Assembly: GCA_938083505.1 (NCBI GenBank)
Contig: CALKCF010000001.1
Coordinates: forward strand, 32,001-96,000
Source of the DNA: an uncultured archaeon
GTDB lineage: Archaea > Thermoproteota > Nitrososphaeria_A > Caldarchaeales > Wolframiiraptoraceae
Direction of reading: 5' to 3'
Length of the DNA: 64,000 nt
Shown here piece by piece: positions 3,873 to 49,957 of the stretch (positions are counted from its first letter, which is position 1; every line of letters begins with the position of its first letter). The notes below the pieces were generated by a model, which was not told the origin of the DNA, searched no databases, and saw only the letters and a program-made list of their open reading frames with translations. The position numbers were made by a program, and so were the translations under genes.

Positions 3873-4831
3873 GCGGAAAGGCGGTTCTTGTCTTCTCCGA
3901 AGAAGATAACCTTGCGTTTGAGCTTCTTGCTTTGGCTAAACAGTTATCGAACCAACTAGGTTCTTGGACAGGGGCCATAATCTTAGGTGACGGGGAAGAT
4001 AGGGTTGTCAAATTTACGGAGCACTGTGCTGATAAGATCTTCGTGGTCTCAGAAGTTGATCCACAAAGAAATGGACCAGATGTAATTGCTGAGGCTGTAG
4101 CGCAGGTTGTTTCAAACATGTTGCCACACATAGTGCTAATTGCGGCGACGAAAATAGGAAAGGAAGTTGCCGCCTATTTGGCGCAAAGCCTACGCACAGG
4201 ATGCGCATCGGGGTGCTTAGACGTATCGCTTAGAGATTCGCAGGTTGAGGTCACTAGGTTTGTAATGGGTGGTAGATTTTTAGCAAGACAGATTTTTGAA
4301 AGTTATCCCGCCGTAATCACAATACCGCCCCACAGATTTCAAGCAATACAATTAAAAGGTAACGGAAGCGTAGAAAATGTAAAGGTTACAGTACAGAAAA
4401 GGATCTCTAAACTTGAGTTCCGAGCGGTTGAGAAAAGTGGTGCTGAGCTTGAGGATGCAGAGGTTGTGGTTGCTATAGGGAGGGGCCTAAAAAGAAAAGA
4501 TGACTTAAAGCTGGTGGAGGAGCTTGTTAAGGTGTTAGGAGCTGAGCTTGGTTGCACGAGGCCAATATCTGGAGACTTAAAGTGGCTTCCCGAGGACAGG
4601 CATATAGGGCTTTCTGGAAAGCATGTGAGGCCTAAACTATACATTGCAGTCGGTGTGTCAGGCCAGATACAACATGTTGTAGGCATGAGGGATTCAAAAA
4701 CTGTCGTATGTGTAAACACAGACCCAAACGCTCCGATGCATAAAGAAGCTGACTACAGCATAGTAGGCGATCTTTACAAAGTTTTACCAGCCCTTACTAA
4801 TATTATTAAAAGAATAAAGGAGAAGGCCTAA
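3869..4831 (+). CDS. etfA: Electron transfer flavoprotein alpha subunit
   Basis: VVVAIGRG, GCTRP, IGLSG, YIAVGVSGQIQHVVGM, NTDPNAP. ATG 3869 overlaps the etfB stop (ATGA); the ORF-track start at 3803 is likely too long. Confidence 0.95.
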   Translation: MSGKAVLVFSEEDNLAFELLALAKQLSNQLGSWTGAIILGDGEDRVVKFTEHCADKIFVVSEVDPQRNGPDVIAEAVAQVVSNMLPHIVLIAATKIGKEVAAYLAQSLRTGCASGCLDVSLRDSQVEVTRFVMGGRFLARQIFESYPAVITIPPHRFQAIQLKGNGSVENVKVTVQKRISKLEFRAVEKSGAELEDAEVVVAIGRGLKRKDDLKLVEELVKVLGAELGCTRPISGDLKWLPEDRHIGLSGKHVRPKLYIAVGVSGQIQHVVGMRDSKTVVCVNTDPNAPMHKEADYSIVGDLYKVLPALTNIIKRIKEKA

Positions 4832-9637: not shown

Positions 9638-10306
9638 CTATAACGACCTATTGCGAAGTATGTTCTCCACTTTTGGCACATCTGCTGCAGAAGAAACTCT
9701 ATATAGGATAGCAAGTTTGCTATCAAACAACCTGAGGGCATTGGTTGACACATAAAGCACATTTCTAAGCTTCTTGATAAGCTCAGGTAAATGCATCTCA
9801 GGATACTTTTTAAAAGCTTCAATGAAGGGGTCGGTTTGGTAGGATGCCAAGCTGAAGTCGACATTATTATTTAGCATTCTGGGTAACACAGCCGTGAATT
9901 TTTTGGAGGCTTCTAGCAAAAAGTAAGTAAATTCTAGTGTTATGCACGGCATATCGCAAGGAAGGACGAGTACACTAGAACTCGGAATGTGCTCCAGAAC
10001 CTCTCTTACCTTTTCATATTCATTCGAATACTGAGTTTTCTCCATCCTCATGAGTGAGGCAAAGTATTTTTCACATATAGGCTCGTAAGCCTCAGCCTGC
10101 GTTTCATTCTCAACCGATAAGAACAACTCTGTAACCTCGTCGGGCACACTGTCAAGGACGTACTCAATCATAGGCTTCCCAGCTATCTTTACCAACCCTT
10201 TCTTATCACCCATGTAACCTTTTCCGTTTACAATGATGACACAAGAATAACTTCTTGTCCTACCTTTAGACATGGATGCCAACCGTTCCTCTTTTTTCAT
10301 TATCAT
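9638..10306 (-). CDS. MobA-like NTP transferase (divergent)
   Basis: KGLVKIAGKPMIEYV and VLVLPCDMP motifs; N-terminal glycine-rich loop is degenerate. Confidence 0.7.
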   Translation of the reverse strand: MIMKKEERLASMSKGRTRSYSCVIIVNGKGYMGDKKGLVKIAGKPMIEYVLDSVPDEVTELFLSVENETQAEAYEPICEKYFASLMRMEKTQYSNEYEKVREVLEHIPSSSVLVLPCDMPCITLEFTYFLLEASKKFTAVLPRMLNNNVDFSLASYQTDPFIEAFKKYPEMHLPELIKKLRNVLYVSTNALRLFDSKLAILYRVSSAADVPKVENILRNRSL

Positions 10307-10418
10307 AACAATATTAGTTATAATTAGTTATAGTTGTCCCTGAATATAAATGCTTTAGAAGTTTCAGCCAGCTGTATAACGATTACAATAAAGCCTTAAC
10401 GTAGAATTGTTACGTACT

Positions 10419-10434
10419 CGAAACGCTTAAATAA
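10419..10434 (+). promoter_or_regulatory. Probable BRE/TATA promoter of the aromatic amino acid operon
   Basis: CGAAACGC-TTAAATA, predicting a TSS near 10455. Confidence 0.55.
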
Positions 10435-10457
10435 AAACGCATAATGCAATTTACTAA

Positions 10458-10590
10458 AGAGAGGCGGTGAACGTGAGGGATTGCCTTTTCTTCATGGCTG
10501 GCTATAGCTGGTATTGCTATAGCCAGCCAGACGCCTCTCTCTAAAGCTATCTTCTCCTTTTTGGGTTTTTGTGGCTTTGGAGGGAGGTCA
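10458..10590 (+). promoter_or_regulatory. Structured 5' leader / candidate attenuator
   Basis: Perfect 14-bp hairpin 10495-10508/10516-10529; 9-bp helix 10458-10466/10532-10540; competing 17-bp helix with 4 G-U pairs 10534-10550/10571-10587 covering the lysC SD; U-rich tract 10551-10570. Confidence 0.7.
10473..10544 (+). CDS. Putative aromatic-rich leader peptide MRDCLFFMAGYSWYCYSQPDASL
   Basis: GTG 10473 preceded by SD-like AGGCGGTGA (10462-10470); alternative in-frame GTG at 10467; 6 aromatic codons (F,F,Y,W,Y,Y) within 11 codons; TAA 10542-10544. Confidence 0.6.
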   Translation: MRDCLFFMAGYSWYCYSQPDASL

Positions 10591-10595
10591 TGTCT

Positions 10596-11813
10596 ATGAA
10601 AGATATAATAGTCGTAAAGCTTGGCGGCTCTGTCCTCCAAGACTCTAAGGCTCTTGAAAAGGCAGCGTCTTGGGTAAAGGATCTGCTAAAGGAACATGGA
10701 CTGGTGGTGGTGGTCTCAGCACTAAAGGGTATGACCGATGAGCTTTTGAAGATGGCTAAGGAGGTTAACCCAGAGGTTCGACCCGAAGTACTCGACGAAA
10801 TTTTGGCGATGGGTGAAAGGACGAGTGCTAGACTTTTCACTGCTGCGTTGAATAGGTTCGGCGTTGATGCTGTTTTGGTAGACCCATCCAACGATTACTG
10901 GCCTGTAATAACGGACGACGTACATTTTGACGCAAACCCCATCTATCACGAAACAGAGAAAAGATGTAAGGAGAAATTATTGCCATTGATTGAGGCTGGC
11001 AAAGTCCCTGTTGTGTGCGGATACATTGGTGTTAGTACCTCGGGTAAGATAACTACGTTAGGTAGGGGTGGTAGTGATACGACGGCCATACTGCTCGGTA
11101 GTTGTCTAAAAGCTGCGGAAGTTGTCTTAATTAAAGATGTTGAGGGTATATATTCAGGAGATCCAGATAAGGTCAGTAATGCTGAGATACTTGAGGTACT
11201 TAACGTAGATGAGGCCAGGTTGTTGACAGAAGGAGGCGCAAAGGTCATTCATTCAAAGGCATTAAGATACCTATCAGAAGGTCTCAGGTTAAGAGTGTCC
11301 AGTATGGAAAGCTTAGGAAGATCAGGAACCGTCATAATTGGCACCCTTCCAAAACTTGATGTTGTCAAACACCCGGCTAAAGCAACCATGATAACGATAC
11401 TTTCGAGAAACTCTAATGGTGTTTCGCTCGTTAAACTTGTCGTGGAGTTTGTCCAAAAACACAACGGAGAAATCCTCAACATAACGACTGATGAGAAATC
11501 CATCATAGTTTATACGAATTTAGATACCAATTTTATGGATAAGTTACATAAGGAGGTTGTAGAATCCGGTATGGGCAAGGCCATAAGCTTTTTCGAAAGG
11601 TTGTCTGCTATAACAATAAGCGGCAGGATGCTTGAAATAAGTCCGGGTGTAATACATAAAGTTGTAGAGCCGCTCGCACGACACGGCATAAATATCTATG
11701 GTTTGGTGACCATAAGCTCATCTATCAGAATATTCGTGTCCGCAAAAGATGCAGATAAGGCGACATATCTTATAAAAGCAAACTTGGAGGTGGAGTTGAA
11801 TGAAACAAATTAA
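10596..11813 (+). CDS. lysC: Aspartate kinase with ACT domains
   Basis: VVKLGGS, VVVVSA, GERTSA, TTLGRGGSDTTA, KDVEGIYSGDP, GAKVIH. SD GGAGGT 7 nt before ATG 10596 (alternative ATG 10590). Confidence 0.95.
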   Translation: MKDIIVVKLGGSVLQDSKALEKAASWVKDLLKEHGLVVVVSALKGMTDELLKMAKEVNPEVRPEVLDEILAMGERTSARLFTAALNRFGVDAVLVDPSNDYWPVITDDVHFDANPIYHETEKRCKEKLLPLIEAGKVPVVCGYIGVSTSGKITTLGRGGSDTTAILLGSCLKAAEVVLIKDVEGIYSGDPDKVSNAEILEVLNVDEARLLTEGGAKVIHSKALRYLSEGLRLRVSSMESLGRSGTVIIGTLPKLDVVKHPAKATMITILSRNSNGVSLVKLVVEFVQKHNGEILNITTDEKSIIVYTNLDTNFMDKLHKEVVESGMGKAISFFERLSAITISGRMLEISPGVIHKVVEPLARHGINIYGLVTISSSIRIFVSAKDADKATYLIKANLEVELNETN

Positions 11814-12855
11814 AGTTGCGGTACTTGGAGCTACCGGAATGGTTGGTCAACGATATGTGAGCATGCTTTCGAGACATCCGTGGTTCAAGCTTTCATGTCT
11901 AACAGGGAAGGAGTCTGCCGGTAAGAAGTACGGCGAAGCAGTGAGGGGCAACCCGATCGACATCCCGTCTAGCGTAGCGGATATGGAAGTTTTACCTAAT
12001 GAGCCAAAGTACGTTGACGCAGATCTAGTATTCTCTCCACTACCAACCGAAGTTGCTCGCGAATCGGAGCCACTTTTTGCGCAAGAAGGTTTTCCCGTTG
12101 TGAGCGATGCTTCTGCTCATAGGATGGAGAAGGATGTCCCACTTATCGTACCTGAGATAAACCCGGAACATATAGAGTTAATAGACGTTCAGAAAAAGAA
12201 TAGAAAGTGGGATGGGTACATCGTAACCACACCAAACTGCACGACCATAGGTTTAATCATGCCCCTCAAACCACTACACGATGCTTACGTTCTCAAGAAA
12301 GTCGTGGTCACTACGATGCAAGCGGTCTCAGGTGCGGGCTTCCCAGGAGTACCATCGCTTTCCATACTTGGGAACGTTATACCATACATATCCGGTGAGG
12401 AAGATAAAGTGGAAAAAGAAACGCAGAAGATACTGGGGAAGTTCAAGAGTAACCATATAGAGCCCGCTCCTATAATCATTGAGGCCAGCTGCACCAGAGT
12501 TCCTACAATAGACGGACACCTAGAATCCGTGTATATTGAGACAGAGAAACCCGTGAACATAAACGATGCAAAAAAGGTGTTAGCAGAATTCAAAGGTCTT
12601 CCACAGGAGCAGGCTCTCCCTACAGCTCCTGATAAACCGATAATTGTCATGGAAGAGGAAGATAGGCCGCAACCAAGGCTTGACATATATGCTGGAAGTG
12701 TTCCGGGAATGAGTGCGGTCGTTGGGAGAGTAAGGTCTGCAAAAGACGAGAGAGCTCTGAAGTTCTTTGTTCTTAGCCATAATACGATAAGAGGTGCTGC
12801 CGGCATAGCAATACTGACAGCTGAGTTGCTACACGTATCCGGGAGGATAGAGTAA
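11800..12855 (+). CDS. asd: Aspartate-semialdehyde dehydrogenase (archaeal type)
   Basis: GATGMVGQR, PNCTT, QAVSGAG, SCTRVP, SHNTIRGAAG. Confidence 0.96.
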   Translation: MKQIKVAVLGATGMVGQRYVSMLSRHPWFKLSCLTGKESAGKKYGEAVRGNPIDIPSSVADMEVLPNEPKYVDADLVFSPLPTEVARESEPLFAQEGFPVVSDASAHRMEKDVPLIVPEINPEHIELIDVQKKNRKWDGYIVTTPNCTTIGLIMPLKPLHDAYVLKKVVVTTMQAVSGAGFPGVPSLSILGNVIPYISGEEDKVEKETQKILGKFKSNHIEPAPIIIEASCTRVPTIDGHLESVYIETEKPVNINDAKKVLAEFKGLPQEQALPTAPDKPIIVMEEEDRPQPRLDIYAGSVPGMSAVVGRVRSAKDERALKFFVLSHNTIRGAAGIAILTAELLHVSGRIE

Positions 12856-12857
12856 AC

Positions 12858-13655
12858 ATGGTTTTCGGAAAGCAGGTCAGGTTGAGTAGAATAACAGAAA
12901 AAGGAAAGATGCTTTGCATACCGATGGACCACGGTGTTACTATAGGGCCGGTCAAAGGCTTAGACAAGATATTTGATATAATAGAAAAGATTAGCTTTGG
13001 AGGAGCCACGGCCGTTTTGACACAAAAAGGTATACTGAGGATGATGCCCAAGCCCTTGAACGTTGGCACTATAATGCATGTCTCTGCAAGTACGTCATTA
13101 GGACCATCACCTAACTTCAAAGTGAGAGTTTCGAGTGTGGAAGAAGCCCTAAGGCTCGGAGCAGATGCTGTTTCCGTTCACGTTAATATAGGATGTAGTG
13201 ATGAGCCGAAGATGCTGAGAAAGCTTGGAATGCTTGCTGATGAGTGCGACGAATGGCAAGTACCGTTCATAGCGATGATGTATCCGAGGGGCGAGAACAT
13301 AAAGAATCCAAACGACCCTGAGATCGTAGCACATGTTGCAAGGATAGGTGCTGAGCTTGGAGCTGACATCGTAAAGACGCCCTACACAGGCACTCTGGAG
13401 ACATTTAGGAAGGTTGTGGATGGTTGCCCAGTTCCCATAGTCATAGCCGGTGGACCGAAAGCAGAGAGCGACCTAGAAGTTTTGAAGATGGTAAGGGAAG
13501 CTATGGACGCCGGCGCTATCGGCGCAGCAATAGGCAGGAACGTTTTTCAACATGATAATCCGTTTGCGATAACCAAAGCGCTCAGGGCCATAATAATTGA
13601 GGATTACACACTCAATGAGGCGCTGGAGGTGCTTAAGGACGCATCTACCAAGTAA
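12858..13655 (+). CDS. aroA': 2-amino-3,7-dideoxy-D-threo-hept-6-ulosonate (ADH) synthase, class I aldolase family
   Basis: PMDHG, MMYPRG, AELGADIVKT, AGG, GRNVFQ; directly upstream of DHQ synthase II. Confidence 0.88.
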   Translation: MVFGKQVRLSRITEKGKMLCIPMDHGVTIGPVKGLDKIFDIIEKISFGGATAVLTQKGILRMMPKPLNVGTIMHVSASTSLGPSPNFKVRVSSVEEALRLGADAVSVHVNIGCSDEPKMLRKLGMLADECDEWQVPFIAMMYPRGENIKNPNDPEIVAHVARIGAELGADIVKTPYTGTLETFRKVVDGCPVPIVIAGGPKAESDLEVLKMVREAMDAGAIGAAIGRNVFQHDNPFAITKALRAIIIEDYTLNEALEVLKDASTK

Positions 13656-14697
13656 AAAGGAGTTTTGCATAGATTTAAGAGACTGGAACGACGAAATCTT
13701 TAGAGAAGCTTTCTCGAGAGGGATTACTACATATTATTGTGATCCTACCAACATTCCACAAGAGCTTAGACAAAAGCTGACGATATACTCGGATTTGTCG
13801 ACCGGAGATGTCATTGTTATACCTCTCGGTAAAGAGGTACCGCAGGTGAGAAGGTTTGCGGTGTATGCTGTCGTGCTAAATTATAGCGATGTAGAGAAGT
13901 TAATCTCCGCGGTAAAGCTTGGCGCCGAGGCTTTGATAGTTGATGCTAAAGATTGGAAGATAATACCGTTAGAAAACATAATCGCATACCTGCAAAAAAC
14001 ATCCACGAAGCTTATGGCGAAGGTCGATAGCTTAGAGGAGATCGAAACTATGTACGGCATCTTGGAGAGAGGGGTTGATGTTGTCTTGTTTAAACCAAAG
14101 AGCAAAGAGGATGTTAGCAGAATATTTGAGGCGATCAGCTACATCGTAAGTGTTCAGCTAACTTCGGTGGAAGTTACAGAAGTCAAGGATGTAGGGATGG
14201 GGGATAGGGCATGTATCGATACGATATCTATTTTATCGATAGGGGAGGGCATGCTCGTTGGAAGTAAAGCAAGTTTTCTATTCCTCATTCACAGTGAATC
14301 GTTAGGTTCTTCGTTCACGGAACCAAGACCCTTCAGGGTAAATGCAGGTGCGATACATAGTTATGTTTTAACACCTACTGGTGGAACTAAGTACTTATCA
14401 GAGATAAAGGCAGGTGATAGAGTCCTGATAATTAACATGCAAGGCTCGGCAAGACCCGCCACAGTCGGCAGGGTTAAGATAGAGAGGAGGCCGATGAGAC
14501 TTATCAGGGCTGAGGCTAACGGTGAAGAGGGTACTGTTGTTTTGCAAAACGCTGAGACCATAAGGCTTATAGGACCAGACGGTAAGCCCGTCCCGGTAAC
14601 TGAAGTTAAACCTGGTGATAAAGTGTTAGCGTACATAAGCAGAGAGAAGGCTAGGCATTTCGGAGTGGCGATTGACGAATTCATAGTGGAGAAATAA
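13615..14697 (+). CDS. aroB': 3-dehydroquinate synthase II
   Basis: DWKIIPLENIIA, LERGVD, GDRACIDT, RPFRVNAGAIHSY, GRVKIERRP, LQNAETI, ARHFG. Start uncertain (13597, 13615 or possibly ACG 13639). Confidence 0.93.
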   Translation: MRRWRCLRTHLPSKKEFCIDLRDWNDEIFREAFSRGITTYYCDPTNIPQELRQKLTIYSDLSTGDVIVIPLGKEVPQVRRFAVYAVVLNYSDVEKLISAVKLGAEALIVDAKDWKIIPLENIIAYLQKTSTKLMAKVDSLEEIETMYGILERGVDVVLFKPKSKEDVSRIFEAISYIVSVQLTSVEVTEVKDVGMGDRACIDTISILSIGEGMLVGSKASFLFLIHSESLGSSFTEPRPFRVNAGAIHSYVLTPTGGTKYLSEIKAGDRVLIINMQGSARPATVGRVKIERRPMRLIRAEANGEEGTVVLQNAETIRLIGPDGKPVPVTEVKPGDKVLAYISREKARHFGVAIDEFIVEK

Positions 14698-14728
14698 TTC
14701 TCGATTATTCATTGAAACTGGTGAAACG

Positions 14729-15436
14729 ATGTTTACGAGAGCAAAACTGTTCAAATTATGTGTATCGACATTTGGAAGAGACATACACTCTTTGAGAGAT
14801 TCTGTAGTTAAGGCAATAAGCGTTGGCGCAGACCTCGTAGAGGTTAGGCTTGATTATTTAGATGAATTGAACGTTAATGTTGTAAGCTCAACGCTAAAGC
14901 CTTACATGAATAGACTCGTGTTAACGCTCAGAGCGCATTATGAGAATGGACTATTTGAAGGTGATGAAAAGGAAAGAGCAGAAATCCTCAAACAATTGGG
15001 TCGGGAAGGTCCAGCGTATGTCGATATAGAGCTTCGTTCTCCTATGTTTCAGGACTTATCAAAAGAGTTGATGAAGGCAGGTACCGCTTTAATAGTTTCA
15101 TGGCATGACTTTGAGAAGACACTAGATACCGACACACTCAGAAGAATAGCCAATATGGCCATGATTGGTGGAAGTATTGCGAAAGTTGTAACTATGGCGA
15201 GATCTTTCAGCGATAACCTTAAGGTCCTCTCGCTATACCATACAGGCGATAAACACAGACTTGTAGCCTTCTGTATGGGAACAGAAGGTGTCTTATCTCG
15301 GTTTCTCTCGGTAATGTTGGGAGCACCCTTCATGTATGTCTCATTGCCTGGGGAGCCAACAGCACCCGGCCAACCCAGCATCACCGAAGCAAAGGAGATC
15401 TTCCGCATGCTTTCGTTAAGCTGTTGTGGAGAGTGA
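14729..15436 (+). CDS. aroD: 3-dehydroquinate dehydratase type I
   Basis: ADLVEVRLD, TLR, VDIE, SWHDF, IAKVV, FCMG, SR, TAPGQ. Confidence 0.93.
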   Translation: MFTRAKLFKLCVSTFGRDIHSLRDSVVKAISVGADLVEVRLDYLDELNVNVVSSTLKPYMNRLVLTLRAHYENGLFEGDEKERAEILKQLGREGPAYVDIELRSPMFQDLSKELMKAGTALIVSWHDFEKTLDTDTLRRIANMAMIGGSIAKVVTMARSFSDNLKVLSLYHTGDKHRLVAFCMGTEGVLSRFLSVMLGAPFMYVSLPGEPTAPGQPSITEAKEIFRMLSLSCCGE

Positions 15437-16315
15437 TTGGGCATATCACCACAAACACGCTTCGGTAACAAAAGACTCATAGGCCTCATTGGACAACCGG
15501 TTAAGCATTCGATATCACCGGATATTCACAATGCTGCTTTTAACTATATGAACCTCGATTACTTTTACATCGCCTTTGATGTGAAGGAAAGGGCCTTAGG
15601 ACTTGCTGTTAAGGGTCTTAAGGCCCTAGGAGCTTTAGGTTTTAATGTAACGATACCATATAAGCAGAAGGTCGTGAAGTTCCTGGATAAACTTGTAGAC
15701 GATGCTAAAGTCCTAAAGACCGTAAATACTGTGGTGATCGAAAAAGATAGAATGATTGGGTACAATACAGATGTTTTAGGTATAATGAATACCCTGGTGC
15801 CTTACAAAGACGTAATAAGTGGTTGTGAAGCATTGATTCTTGGTGCAGGTGGAGGCGCTTCTGCCGCCGCCTTAGCCTTGGCCAGATTTGGTTGTAATCA
15901 CATAACGTTTGCTAACCGAACACTTTCAAGGGCCCGTAGGCTTGCGAACTTCCTACGTCAGAAGATTAAAATTTCTGCAGAGGGCATAGGTCTTTCGGCC
16001 AGCAACTTATCTGCAATTGCCAAAACTTGTGGTATTGTAATCAACGCGACACCCATCGGTATGTGGCCGAATAACAATAATTCATTGCTTAAAAAGGAAC
16101 AGATACGAAGTGGCTCTATAATAATGGATATGGTATACAATCCTTCTGAAACAGCACTCCTTAGAGAAGCAAAGCTTGCAGGTGCTATATGCGTCTCCGG
16201 ACTTGACATGTTGGTATTTCAGGCTGCAGAGTCCTTTAAATTATGGACATCCTTAGAGCCGCCGATAGAGGTTATGAAGGAGGTTGCCTTAGAGGCAATA
16301 GGTCGTTTTGTATGA
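15437..16315 (+). CDS. aroE: Shikimate dehydrogenase
   Basis: HSISPDIHN, NVTIPYK, VNT, GYNTD, GAGG, INATPIGM, DMVYNP, GLDMLVFQA. Confidence 0.95.
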   Translation: MGISPQTRFGNKRLIGLIGQPVKHSISPDIHNAAFNYMNLDYFYIAFDVKERALGLAVKGLKALGALGFNVTIPYKQKVVKFLDKLVDDAKVLKTVNTVVIEKDRMIGYNTDVLGIMNTLVPYKDVISGCEALILGAGGGASAAALALARFGCNHITFANRTLSRARRLANFLRQKIKISAEGIGLSASNLSAIAKTCGIVINATPIGMWPNNNNSLLKKEQIRSGSIIMDMVYNPSETALLREAKLAGAICVSGLDMLVFQAAESFKLWTSLEPPIEVMKEVALEAIGRFV

Positions 16316-17190
16316 AGGCGAGCGCTAGGGCGCACGGCGCTATAACGATCGTTAACGCCATATCGATTGGTAAAGGGGCGGCCATGGGTATCGATCTTTA
16401 TACAGAGGTCACTGTGGAGATAGGTGGTAAAGACATAGATGTGATGATAAAGGAAAACCCGGATGAGGATACAACACTAGCGAAGGTGGCGGTAAGCAAA
16501 GTCTTGAAGTTGGCACATATGAACTGCGGAGCTTATGTCGAAATCAGCTCAAACATACCAATCGGCAAGGGATTGAAGAGTTCCAGCGCAGCCGCCAATG
16601 CTATAGTTCTGGCTACGGCAAGGGCTGCGGATTTGAACTTGAATGATATTGAGATGTTAAATATAGCCGTTGACGCGGCAATAGAAGCTGGCGTTACCAT
16701 AACCGGTGCATATGACGATGCGTGTGCTAGCTATTATGGCGGCATAGTCATCACAGATAATTTGAAGAGGCAGATTGTGAGAAAGGATAAAGCTCCAGAA
16801 GACCTTTTTGTTATTTTGCTCGTCCCAGAATCAAAGAGTTATACTAAATTTTTTGATAAGAACGTACTTAAATCTATTGCATCATTTATTGAGGATGTAT
16901 ATAGCATGACTCTGAACGGGGAATATTGGAAAGCCCTGACACTTAACGGCATACTTCATTCGGTGGTGTTAAATTACGACGCGAAAAAAGCTATAAACGC
17001 TATGAAAGCAGGAGCTTTAGCTGCCGGTCTATCTGGAACCGGGCCCGCCATTGCCGCTGTATGTAGAAAAGATGCTTTGGACAACGTTGTCAATACATTA
17101 AGCGAAAAGAGATGTAAGCTCATAATAGCTAAACCGAATAACAAAAAAGCTTACTCATGGAGAGGTGGTCGTGTTGCAGGTTTCGATTAA
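16312..17190 (+). CDS. aroK: Archaeal shikimate kinase (GHMP family)
   Basis: GAITIVNAI, IPIGKGLKSSSAA, TITGAYDDA, GLSGTGP; ATG 16312 overlaps the aroE stop. Confidence 0.93.
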   Translation: MKASARAHGAITIVNAISIGKGAAMGIDLYTEVTVEIGGKDIDVMIKENPDEDTTLAKVAVSKVLKLAHMNCGAYVEISSNIPIGKGLKSSSAAANAIVLATARAADLNLNDIEMLNIAVDAAIEAGVTITGAYDDACASYYGGIVITDNLKRQIVRKDKAPEDLFVILLVPESKSYTKFFDKNVLKSIASFIEDVYSMTLNGEYWKALTLNGILHSVVLNYDAKKAINAMKAGALAAGLSGTGPAIAAVCRKDALDNVVNTLSEKRCKLIIAKPNNKKAYSWRGGRVAGFD

Positions 17191-18463
17191 ACCCTCAGTG
17201 ATATATGGTAGGGTACAAGCACCTCCCAGCAAAAGCTACAGCCATAGGGCTATAATAGCTGCCTCTATGTCAGATGGCGAATGTGTTGTAGAAAACGTTT
17301 CAAAATCCGATGATGTTCTTGCCACAATTAGTGCGTGTAAAAAATTTGGCACCTCAATAGTCGAAGAAGGTGATAAGCTCATCATCGACGGCCTCTCAAC
17401 ACCTAAGACACCAGAGGATGTTGTGAACGTTCAGAACTCGGGAACGACATTGAGGATAATGACTGGTATAAGTTGCTTAGTTCAAGACGGGTACGTAATA
17501 CTCACGGGCGATGAGAGTATAAGAAGAAGGCCAATGCAGCCACTCCTTGACGCCCTTAACATGCTTGGAGGGGAGTGCTGGTCTACAAGGCTTAATGGTT
17601 GCGCTCCCATTGTCGTTAAAGGTGGTGGATTAAAGGGTGGGAATGCCTGGATGAATGGTAAAGTATCTTCCCAGTTCGTATCATCCATACTGTTCTCATC
17701 ACCGAAGGCTACAAGCGATACGACGCTCACGATACAAGGAGATCTCGTATCAAAACCTTACGTTGACGCCACCATACATGTACTAGAACAGTTCAACATT
17801 CATATAGAAAGGGAAGGATACAAAGTATTTCGCATTGCTTCACAGCAGAATTTTAAGCCCACGCATTTTGTAGTGCCCGGAGATTTTGGGCTTGCCTCCT
17901 TCATGATGGCTGCAGCGCTTATTACAGATGGTTCAGTAAATGTTGAAGGGCTTAATCAAGAGTTACCGCAAGCCGATGCTGCCATAGTTGATATACTTAT
18001 CAAGATGGGGGCCAGCGTTAAGTTGGATTACAGTTCTAGGCGTGTAACAGTTAGTGGAGGTGGAAGGCTTAAGGGCGGTAGCTTTAACTTATCCGATTCT
18101 CCAGACCTTTTGCCAGTCTTAGCAGTCCTAGCTACCAAATGTGAAGGGACTGTTGAAATAACAGGTGTGGAACATGCAAGGTTTAAGGAAAGCGATAGGG
18201 TTAGTGCCCTTGCACATGCTCTTTCTATGATAGGAATGAATGTAAAAGAGATGCCGGAGGGATTAAGCATAACGCAAGGTAAATTGGTTAAGCATGCAGT
18301 ACTCGACTCAAAAGGTGACCATAGACTCTTCATGGCCTATTGTCTTTTAGGGCTCATCCTAGAAGAGGGGTGCACTATAGCGGGAGCAGAGTGCATGAAC
18401 GTATCTTATCCGAATTTTCTTAGAGACCTTGCTAGTTTAGGTGCAAAAATTGAGCTCATATAA
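17165..18463 (+). CDS. aroA: EPSP synthase (3-phosphoshikimate 1-carboxyvinyltransferase)
   Basis: PPSKSYSHR, NSGTTLR, RRPM, SSQFVS, SKPYV, KESDR, DHR, SYPNF. Confidence 0.96.
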   Translation: MVVLQVSIKPSVIYGRVQAPPSKSYSHRAIIAASMSDGECVVENVSKSDDVLATISACKKFGTSIVEEGDKLIIDGLSTPKTPEDVVNVQNSGTTLRIMTGISCLVQDGYVILTGDESIRRRPMQPLLDALNMLGGECWSTRLNGCAPIVVKGGGLKGGNAWMNGKVSSQFVSSILFSSPKATSDTTLTIQGDLVSKPYVDATIHVLEQFNIHIEREGYKVFRIASQQNFKPTHFVVPGDFGLASFMMAAALITDGSVNVEGLNQELPQADAAIVDILIKMGASVKLDYSSRRVTVSGGGRLKGGSFNLSDSPDLLPVLAVLATKCEGTVEITGVEHARFKESDRVSALAHALSMIGMNVKEMPEGLSITQGKLVKHAVLDSKGDHRLFMAYCLLGLILEEGCTIAGAECMNVSYPNFLRDLASLGAKIELI

Positions 18464-48055: not shown

Positions 48056-49957
48056 TTGAGTGCAGCAGATAGGCTCAGAGCAGAGATATTAAGATATTTC
48101 TCTGTAGTTAGCCCTAGGGAGGCGGCTATTACAAAAGTTGAGTACGAAGGGACGAGGCTCGCTATATACACTAAGAATCCTGAGTTGTTCGCGGAAAGGG
48201 ACCAGATCGCAAAAGACCTCGTGAACATGCTTAAGAAACGCGTGATCATAAGGTCCGACCCAGCAATAAGATTGCCTCAGGAGGAAGTGGAAAAGATGCT
48301 CAAATCAACCTTTGGCGAAGATGCCACTGTCTTCTTCGATGATATTTTAGGGGAAGCTATAGTTGAAGTTAAGGAGCTTAACACCAACAAAAATGGGGAG
48401 AAAATCAAGAATGTTTGTAAGGTAACGGGTTGGCATGTAAAAGTATTAAGGAAAACGTTAATACCTTCAAAGACAATCGAGAAGATTAACCAATACCTTT
48501 ATAAAGATTCGGATAAGAGGCTCGGCATATTAAGAACAATAGGTGAAAGAGTATTTGCAACACAAACTTTTAGAACCAGCGACGTAACGCTCACAACACT
48601 CGGCTCCGGAAGGCAAGTTGGAAGGTCCGCCATATTGCTTCAGACCAATGAGAGCAAGATATTGTTGGACTGTGGTGTTGCCCTTGGTGCTGTAAGCAAG
48701 CTCGATATGTTACCTAGATTTGATGCCTACCCTTCAATCTTTAATGAACTTGATGCCGTAATAGCAACACATGCACACCTCGACCACACTGGCGCCATAC
48801 CTTACCTGTTCAAGTATGGTTACAGAGGGCCTGTTTATTGTACTGAACCAACATTGCCTCTTATGACTATGGAGCAGTTAGACTTTATTAATGTCGCAGA
48901 AAAGGAGGGGTTATTTCCGCTATACAATGAGAATGACGTAAAAACGGCAGTCCAGCATACTATAACCCTAAAATACGGTAGCGTTACAAGCGTAACACCA
49001 GATATAAGGGTAACAATGTACAATGCTGGACACATACTGGGCTCTTCAGTTGTTCATATACATATAGGTGAGGGGCTATACAACATCGTTTACACTAGCG
49101 ACTTTAAATTTGAAAAGAGTAGGACACTAGATGCATGTGTTCATAAATTCTTAAGGGCAGAGACCTTGATAATGGAGAGCACGTATGGTGCGACGCCCCT
49201 ACCATTTACTAGAGAAGAAAGCGAGGCATTGTTGGCCGGCTATATAAAGCAGACGGTAGAGGCTGGTGGGAAAGTGCTGATACCCGTACCGGCCGTCGGT
49301 AGAGCTCAAGAGATAATGCTCGTCCTTAATGATCTTTTAAACTCAAAGAGTATACCAGAAGTACCCATTTACTTAGATGGTCTCGTCATAGAGGCAACTG
49401 CGATATACACAGCATTTCCTGAATATGTTTCTCAGGAGCTGCAGGCTGTTATGGAATCTCAGGGTAATGTGTTTATGTCAGAGTACTTCACGCCGATAAA
49501 GAGCCATTCGCAAAGAAATGAAGCACTAAACGCTGAAGGGCCCGCCATTGTGATTTCCACGTCAGGAATGCTAGAAGGTGGGCCGGTACTGAACTATTTA
49601 AAAGAGTTTGCAGGTGATGAAAAAAACATGTTAATATTTGTCAGCTACCAGGTTGAGGGAACTTTGGGTAGAAAGTTGCTCAAGGGCATAAGGGAAGTGT
49701 CGTTTATAGATGAGAGGGGTAAGACTGAGGTTTTTAACGTTAAGCTACGCATAGAAAAGGTAGACGGATTCTCTGGACATTCTAGTAGACAACAATTACT
49801 GAACTATCTGAAGAAGTTCACGCCGAAGCCAAAGAACGTAATATTATTACATGGTGAGGTCAAAGCTATCGAGAGTCTAGCAGAATCCGCCTCAAAGATC
49901 GTTACAGCAAACATCTGCATGCCAAAGAATCTTGAAACCATATCACTTTTTGGTTAA
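48056..49957 (+). CDS. fttA: aCPSF1/FttA beta-CASP ribonuclease with KH domains
   Basis: KH N-terminus, VGRS, THAHLDHTG, AGHILGS, MESTYG, SGMLEGG, FSGHS, HGE. Confidence 0.95.
   Translation: MSAADRLRAEILRYFSVVSPREAAITKVEYEGTRLAIYTKNPELFAERDQIAKDLVNMLKKRVIIRSDPAIRLPQEEVEKMLKSTFGEDATVFFDDILGEAIVEVKELNTNKNGEKIKNVCKVTGWHVKVLRKTLIPSKTIEKINQYLYKDSDKRLGILRTIGERVFATQTFRTSDVTLTTLGSGRQVGRSAILLQTNESKILLDCGVALGAVSKLDMLPRFDAYPSIFNELDAVIATHAHLDHTGAIPYLFKYGYRGPVYCTEPTLPLMTMEQLDFINVAEKEGLFPLYNENDVKTAVQHTITLKYGSVTSVTPDIRVTMYNAGHILGSSVVHIHIGEGLYNIVYTSDFKFEKSRTLDACVHKFLRAETLIMESTYGATPLPFTREESEALLAGYIKQTVEAGGKVLIPVPAVGRAQEIMLVLNDLLNSKSIPEVPIYLDGLVIEATAIYTAFPEYVSQELQAVMESQGNVFMSEYFTPIKSHSQRNEALNAEGPAIVISTSGMLEGGPVLNYLKEFAGDEKNMLIFVSYQVEGTLGRKLLKGIREVSFIDERGKTEVFNVKLRIEKVDGFSGHSSRQQLLNYLKKFTPKPKNVILLHGEVKAIESLAESASKIVTANICMPKNLETISLFG

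Follow-up and report, generated by a model that had tools for sequence, protein, structure and literature searches.

A candidate ribosome-mediated attenuator for aromatic amino acids ahead of an archaeal shikimate operon

Introduction

Could an archaeon use a translating ribosome to gauge its supply of aromatic amino acids? Leader-peptide attenuation is a textbook bacterial mechanism, and our literature search, with most subscription papers outside its reach, found no archaeal leader-peptide attenuator. TrpY (M. thermautotrophicus) and Tar (TK0271, T. kodakarensis) serve the same pathway and respond to aromatic amino acids, acting as DNA-binding regulators of transcription initiation without a leader ORF; many crenarchaeal genomes lack both, and a third mechanism has been predicted (PMC6737238). 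The regulatory use of archaeal transcription–translation coupling and of FttA is itself an open question (PMC11616081, PMC8116511). The locus considered here lies in a 64,000-nucleotide stretch (the window) from an uncultured archaeon, whose nearest named relatives are Ca. Terraquivivens, family Wolframiiraptoraceae (LysC identity 87–88%).

Results

A 140-nt leader heads the shikimate operon

The leader, 140 nt in size, lies between a divergent mobA-like gene (ending at 10306, minus strand) and an aromatic amino-acid operon, the presumed regulated unit (lysC-asd-ADH synthase-DHQ synthase II-aroD-aroE-aroK-aroA; 10590–18463, plus strand), whose genes overlap or abut. NCBIfam identifies the products as aspartate kinase, ASA dehydrogenase, ADH synthase, DHQ synthase II, aroD, aroE, an archaeal shikimate kinase and aroA. 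The operon encodes the ASA-dependent archaeal route to shikimate, which makes an aspartate kinase at its head reasonable; a second aspartate kinase lies elsewhere in the genome, alongside hom. An initial annotation of this DNA had envisaged control of the whole aromatic pathway, which is too wide: the operon stops at aroA, and aroC, pheA and the trp operon are on other contigs. The start of lysC is either 10590 (ATG or GTG in 7/7 genomes of the genus) or 10596, which has the better SD spacing but is ATA in one genus genome. No second copy of the leader was found in the genome.

All parts of the leader are on the plus strand (coordinates are those of the window). A BRE (10419–10424) and TATA box (10426–10433), together 10419–10433, are conserved in 10 aligned leaders; identity among these climbs from 41% to 88% at about 10456, and we infer a transcript start at about 10455–10457, which would place segment 1 (10458–10466) at the mRNA 5′ end. 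This segment, the 5′ strand of a 9-bp helix termed 1:3, is invariant in 7/7 genus genomes and overlaps the SD of the leader ORF (10461–10470), whose duplex with the genome's own 16S 3′ end is worth −9.1 kcal/mol (−7.4 or −9.1 kcal/mol in relatives). The ORF itself (10473–10544) has a GTG start and 23 codons, with aromatic codons F6, F7, Y11, W13, Y14 and Y16. The TATA box, SD-like stretch, ORF, translation and cluster of six aromatic codons in 11 reported initially are all confirmed in the sequence.

Two hairpins were overlooked in the first description of the fold. Hairpin S (10472–10496; 10472–10480:10488–10496) covers the uORF start codon, is nested within 1:3 and belongs to the consensus fold; it is conserved, and its changes in this genome are from G-C to G-U. 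Hairpin P (10495–10529) lies over the aromatic codons, with a conserved 8-bp core (10501–10508:10516–10523) on the Tyr-Ser codons; only in this genome is it a perfect 14 bp, and the 14-bp palindrome, being private to this genome, was rejected as a DNA operator. Segment 3 (10532–10547), the anti-SD strand, spans the stop codon, starts 14–15 nt past the first base of the last aromatic codon and can take either segment 1 or segment 4 as partner. A U/C-rich spacer (10548–10573) forms the loop of helix 3:4; it is variable (27% invariant columns), has a pyrimidine fraction of 0.72 in the genus, holds a weak second anti-SD and is a possible FttA/aCPSF1 site. An FttA/aCPSF1 gene (48083–49948, plus strand; TIGR03675, over cut-off) is encoded in the same window, outside the leader element. 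Segment 4 (10574–10588) carries the lysC SD and completes the conserved 14-bp helix 3:4.

The leader folds far more strongly than its shuffles (z −7.3). A weak 1:2 pairing (10459–10468:10480–10489) appears in this genome's MFE and is absent from the consensus fold. An Rfam scan of the leader returned only a chance snoRNA match (E = 6.2), the leader peptide has no Pfam match, and no intrinsic terminator (hairpin then U run) was found in 10300–10800, the U-rich tract being located inside the loop of 3:4. The lengthening of P (10495–10529) and of 3:4 (10548–10550/10571–10573) alters several leader residues in this genome alone; no independent assembly of the variant was found, and it may be an adaptation or an assembly quirk.

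The aromatic-rich upstream ORF is conserved beyond the genus

Taken alone, the window makes a weak case for the ORF, since the p value of the aromatic cluster under dinucleotide shuffling is 0.01 and this genome has five upstream regions, out of 428, with at least six aromatic codons; it is conservation that carries the case. Regions preceding lysC, or the first aro gene, were collected across the order and in a phylum sample. An aromatic-rich uORF is present in 55 leaders heading this operon; they come from Geocrenenecus, Benthortus and two other families of the order, from Bathyarchaeia and from further lineages. When shuffles repeated the whole search, p ≤ 0.05 was reached by 48/55 leaders and by 2/24 control regions; as related genomes are not independent, these leader counts give a pattern and no test statistic. 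Codon enrichments (F 8×, Y 11×, W 3×) serve as description only: they are circular, the ORFs having been chosen for their aromatic content. When this genome was scanned generically for biased uORFs, neither the aromatic leader nor any convincing other was flagged. Like the single-genome p value, this would fit an ORF and a pairing that arose by chance in an ordinary 5′ UTR. Phylum-wide conservation, together with the covariation and the segregation with the operon described below, contradicts that account, which we regard as vanishingly improbable.

Start and length of the 23-codon GTG ORF are invariant in the 7 genus genomes, with TAA or TGA as stop. Among the leaders ATG, GTG and TTG starts are interchangeable, as are TAA, TAG and TGA stops; the lengths of internal indels are divisible by 3, and F, Y and W substitute for each other, TGG/TAT swaps included. 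An alignment of orthologous lysC leaders, the check that had been suggested for the aromatic codons, recovers F6, Y11, Y/W13, Y14 and Y16 in 7/7 genomes. The notion that all three aromatics are sensed fares less well: Phe and Tyr codons are conserved, whereas Trp13 is Tyr in 5/7 genus genomes. Phe7 is replaced by Leu in 6/7. On this alignment, Trp sensing is not a conserved property of the aromatic leader. Altogether the leader ORF is conserved and aromatic-rich, and apparently translated. Its frame offset to the first gene is 0, 1 or 2 in 23, 11 and 21 leaders, respectively (0 or 2 within the genus). A programmed readthrough or frameshift fusion of uORF and lysC was rejected, the frame relation being free and lysC having its own SD and start.

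Might the RNA instead be a switch read by a protein or metabolite, with the ORF incidental or encoding a trans-acting small peptide and stalling playing no role? The codons are strongly constrained at the nucleotide level (Tyr is TAT in 25/26 cases across the genus, and third positions are invariant in codons 20–23), F/Y codons arise readily from U-rich RNA, and in the actinobacterial LEU element Leu-codon mutations had no effect on regulation (PMC1262725). Such a switch would nevertheless have to be reconciled with the lack of an Rfam match and of any conserved unpaired motif across genera, and with the persistence of frame, start, stop and aromatic content despite turnover of the helix sequences. 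Conservation does not extend to the N-terminal half of the peptide, the shuffles control for composition, and cognate codons recur ahead of trpE, leuA and ilvB in the genus. We judge this reading rather improbable.

One anti-SD strand can pair with either of two SDs

Two mutually exclusive helices had been proposed, and comparison bears them out. Helix 1:3 is a perfect 9 bp (10458–10466:10532–10540) that overlaps helix 3:4 and is invariant within the genus. Helix 3:4 does reach 17 bp with exactly four G-U pairs in this genome (10534–10550:10571–10587), as first described; only 14 bp (10534–10547:10574–10587) are kept in the 7 genus genomes, the extra 3 bp, with two of the four G-U pairs, being largely private to this genome. 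Four of the 14 pairs vary across the 7/7 genomes, all still paired, through one-sided G-U changes; within the genus, covariation of 3:4 was not above shuffles and no double-sided change occurred.

Compensation appears across genera. The segment 3 bases flanking the CCUC core are UCU, AGA or CGG, and both partners match: outside the SD core, changes in segment 3 go with compensating changes in both segment 1 and segment 4, in four genera. Because segment 3 covaries with both partners across four genera, both helices are real by this comparative measure. Dual pairing is above shuffles in 10/11 leaders of the same layout, and a 3:4-equivalent, SD-covering helix is present in 3 further genera. Other lineages have a 5′-end helix onto the aromatic codons and a hairpin over or after the stop that leaves the SD uncovered. 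Across genera no sequence motif was found outside the SD and anti-SD cores, and the leader does not classify as a T-box or metabolite riboswitch. The ORF, the helices and their geometry are all drawn from comparison.

Folding order could decide access to the lysC SD

Folding order and RBS accessibility were computed, using an archaeal ribosome footprint of 27 nt (PMC7261190); nearest-neighbour energies take no account of a ribosome inside a loop, and 70 °C is an assumption from the hot-spring origin of relatives. At equilibrium the full leader of this genome adopts 3:4 (P about 1.0) whichever aromatic codon the ribosome occupies, 1:3 being worse by 8–13 kcal/mol at 37 °C and 5–7 kcal/mol at 70 °C. 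The initial annotation held that stalling frees the lysC SD; because the leader stays in 3:4 at equilibrium, stalling by itself does not. Opening the lysC RBS costs 17.5 kcal/mol in the naked leader, 18.4 kcal/mol in the stalled state and 10.9 kcal/mol with the ribosome at the stop (37 °C, this genome). The escape barrier from 1:3 is moreover only about 3.5 kcal/mol in this genome, owing to the private 3-bp extension. With 3:4 at equilibrium in every state and so low a barrier, either the ON state is kinetic or the energy model is in error. In relatives a stall tilts the equilibrium slightly to 3:4, away from 1:3.

For nascent RNA lacking segment 4, P(1:3) is 0.93–1.0 with the ribosome at codons 6–16 and 0 from codon 18. 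Segment 3 begins just outside the 27-nt footprint of a ribosome at the last aromatic codon, and direct cover of the anti-SD strand by a stalled ribosome occurs in three leaders only (L008, L010 and L045), and there only at the last codon. Once in 1:3, the RBS opens for 1.1 kcal/mol, against 9.4 kcal/mol in 3:4 (70 °C, start 10596, this genome); opening is cheaper in 1:3 than in 3:4 in 7/7 genomes, by 1–4 kcal/mol in the sisters. A stall would lower this cost if 1:3 is kinetically kept; at equilibrium it does not. In the six sister genomes 1:3 and 3:4 mostly lie within about 3 kcal/mol of each other, with barriers of 7.5–10 kcal/mol at 70 °C, as expected of a bistable switch; on these models this genome is an outlier, biased to 3:4 (OFF) by 17 bp against the conserved 14. 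Beyond the genus, a ribosome on the aromatic codons increases the RBS opening cost in 11/11 Geocrenenecus/Benthortus-type leaders and has no effect in most asd-first leaders (both at 37 °C), and an SD switch is therefore not the family-wide output.

The stalling model survives only as a co-transcriptional decision by the first ribosome, with completed translation erasing 1:3. In this form we propose, with about as much confidence as doubt, a ribosome-mediated attenuator whose signal is charged tRNA-Tyr/Phe (in some lineages Trp) and whose first target is the initiation of lysC translation. Sensing by leader translation is very likely; an output at the lysC SD through a first-ribosome decision between 1:3 and 3:4 is reasonably probable. 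The anti-SD strand, segment 3, would pair with the leader's own SD region (segment 1) or with the lysC SD (segment 4), and 1:3 would form first, behind the pioneer ribosome, because segment 3 is transcribed before segment 4. When aromatic aminoacyl-tRNA is scarce, the ribosome would wait at codons 6–16, short of segment 3; 1:3 would persist, and the lysC SD would emerge largely free and be loaded, the operon being transcribed through. When it is plentiful, the ribosome would reach the stop inside segment 3 and melt 1:3, which is erased past codon 17, and on its release the local hairpin 3:4 would conceal the lysC SD, so that completed translation switches the operon off. Untranslated lysC mRNA would then be lost via FttA-type polarity and lost translational coupling, silencing the seven downstream genes; archaeal polarity has been attributed to FttA (PMC12548453), and this polarity and the tight gene overlaps would carry the decision along the operon. 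Translation, stalling, the direction of the switch and polarity are what we infer here. Two further points weigh against the scheme: segment 1 could be taken by a second ribosome as soon as the first is beyond codon 10, which would block 1:3, and any anti-SD pairs to some degree with two SDs.

The RBS opening cost, lowest with a ribosome near the stop, also suits a different arrangement, in which 3:4 is the default and each ribosome at the leader stop melts it, letting lysC initiate. Aromatic codons would then meter lysC through leader throughput, possibly as positive or buffering control, and 1:3 and S would merely limit re-initiation on the leader; 1:3+S+P is the preferred untranslated fold in the sister genomes and covers the uORF start. 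This coupling predicts less enzyme under aromatic scarcity, however, which is the wrong sign for a biosynthetic operon, and it would have to act over a stop-to-start distance of 45–51 nt; in H. volcanii there is little reinitiation coupling once the spacing exceeds 30 nt (PMC12548453). We think it very unlikely.

Transcription termination as an alternative output

In the main rival reading, the same sensor would act chiefly through premature transcription termination in the leader, with SD pairing secondary. The U/C-rich tract after the stop would then be an FttA/aCPSF1 or oligo-U terminator (PMC11616081, PMC13675443). A ribosome at the stop would expose it, and a stall would hide it, either in 1:3 or in the 3:4 loop. 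What is common across lineages is a hairpin at the uORF stop with a U- or C/U-rich tract, often with the SD uncovered, and two leaders (L069 and L072) resemble hairpin plus U-run terminators; a stall, as computed above, favours 3:4 at equilibrium. Like the E. coli trp antiterminator, 3:4 has a 5′ arm that begins at the leader stop. The position at which FttA binds U-rich RNA is −30 to −36 (PMC11616081). Termination would fit the lineages with the hairpin off the SD, as well as Geocrenenecus/Benthortus, where a stall makes RBS opening costlier. For the leader at hand, though, this output is unlikely: there is no hairpin-plus-U terminator, the longest U run in the genus being 3–5; segment 4 would still be in RNA polymerase when the tract first passes the FttA window, leaving 3:4 hardly able to shield it; and the covariation of 3:4 sits precisely over the SD in four genera.

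Natural deletions and replacements at the operon

Natural rearrangements bear on the proposed attenuator. Where lysC, or lysC and asd, are deleted, the aromatic leader and its promoter still head the operon. In 7 lysC-deleted genomes (L093–L097, L101 and L104) an open linker ORF of 15–44 codons leads from the old SD and extends 4–23 nt into the next gene, with frame-preserving indels in 5; it is probably a remnant of the lysC 5′ end, and its retention points to a requirement for translation just downstream of the leader. In one genus (L012–L014, L021, L025, L047 and L048) lysC is split from the aro genes and the asd-aro operon is leaderless; the leader left at the orphaned lysC has decayed in 7/12 genomes.

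Three aro operons without a leader peptide (L030, L051 and L052) have a lysC without an in-frame start. Here, about 30 nt upstream of the lysC match, an SD-led TTG frame, GGC-GGT-TGC-GTT-TAT, leads into LysC through a +1 shift at GTT-TAT; the context of this shift resembles that in prfB. These leaderless operons appear to carry another ribosome-based Tyr sensor, a candidate frameshift replacing the attenuator.

Leaders of other amino-acid genes

Upstream of trpE, a single Trp codon lies in a short out-of-frame ORF at 30/30 loci of the order (G000:C7 about 4455–4475, minus strand, in this genome, L167; L168–L196 in others). The codon stands in (C/G)TT-TGG, often after GGNGG, as in prfB; the TrpE frame is always +1 to the upstream ORF, has an in-frame stop 1–10 codons upstream in 28 of 30 loci and lacks an SD-led start in many. 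We regard this ORF as a candidate Trp-sensing +1 frameshift.

The leuA leader (G000:C7:48090–48204; L197–L203) has an SD-led 5-codon ORF, M(S/N)QL(E/D), in 7/7 genus genomes and a short hairpin covering the leuA SD. That of ilvB (G000:C7:49800–49925; L110–L115) has a 5–7-codon ORF with RQ(I/V)(I/L/P) before the stop and Ile/Val/Leu codons in 6/6; its anti-SD can pair with the SD of the uORF or, in this genome, with that of ilvB, again a layout of one anti-SD and two SDs. Sister genomes often carry two tandem ilvB copies. The leuA and ilvB ORFs, short and compared within the genus, are weak alone. In the one genome searched, hisG, hom and pheA showed no leader rich in His or in Thr/Lys/Met; the hisG leader (G000:C6:30235–30373, minus strand) is ~130 nt, structured, with complementary G-rich and C-rich strands and without a His-rich ORF.

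Discussion

A close bacterial parallel is aroR-aroF of Corynebacterium glutamicum (Neshat et al. 2014, summarised in PMC11802643), which shares a Phe/Tyr leader before the first enzyme of the common aromatic pathway and a multivalent design. That system is described there as bacterial transcription attenuation before DAHP synthase; ours is archaeal, precedes the aspartate kinase of an ASA-dependent route, lacks a terminator hairpin and U run, and has an SD-covering helix. With E. coli trpL, pheL-pheA and pheM-pheST (PMC11802643) the leader has in common a short SD-led ORF, cognate codons, exclusive helices and a stop on the switching strand; it differs in having neither an intrinsic terminator nor an Rfam leader-family match, and in its topology, 1:3 versus 3:4 with one anti-SD for two SDs, in place of 1:2/2:3/3:4.

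The mycobacterial polycysteine short ORF Ms5788A (bioRxiv 10.1101/834739) is likewise an amino-acid-sensing uORF, and its target is a structure that sequesters the SD of the operon's first gene. That ORF is leaderless and its Cys codons themselves pair with the SD, so that a stalled ribosome unmasks it directly; in the archaeal leader the anti-SD lies just past the stalled footprint, and the second helix, 1:3, is needed. Bathyarchaeia leaders look closer to the direct, Ms5788A-like model. Because neither a terminator nor direct occlusion by the stalled ribosome was found, the leader is set apart from aroR/pheL and from polycysteine ORFs.

Tentatively, and with slightly more doubt than confidence, we suggest that these archaea use a set of ribosome-as-sensor devices for amino-acid biosynthesis. 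Its aromatic member would be a switch with one anti-SD for two SDs, in which completed translation means OFF and FttA polarity seals the outcome, and it would be evolutionarily interchangeable with a prfB-like hungry-codon +1 frameshift. The window contributes the triple covariation of segment 3, a model based on folding order, and the cases of gene deletion and leader replacement; the 140-nt leader is a small cassette with its parts defined to the base. If the proposal is true, it would give Archaea their first case of leader-peptide attenuation and show directly that archaeal transcription–translation coupling serves regulation.
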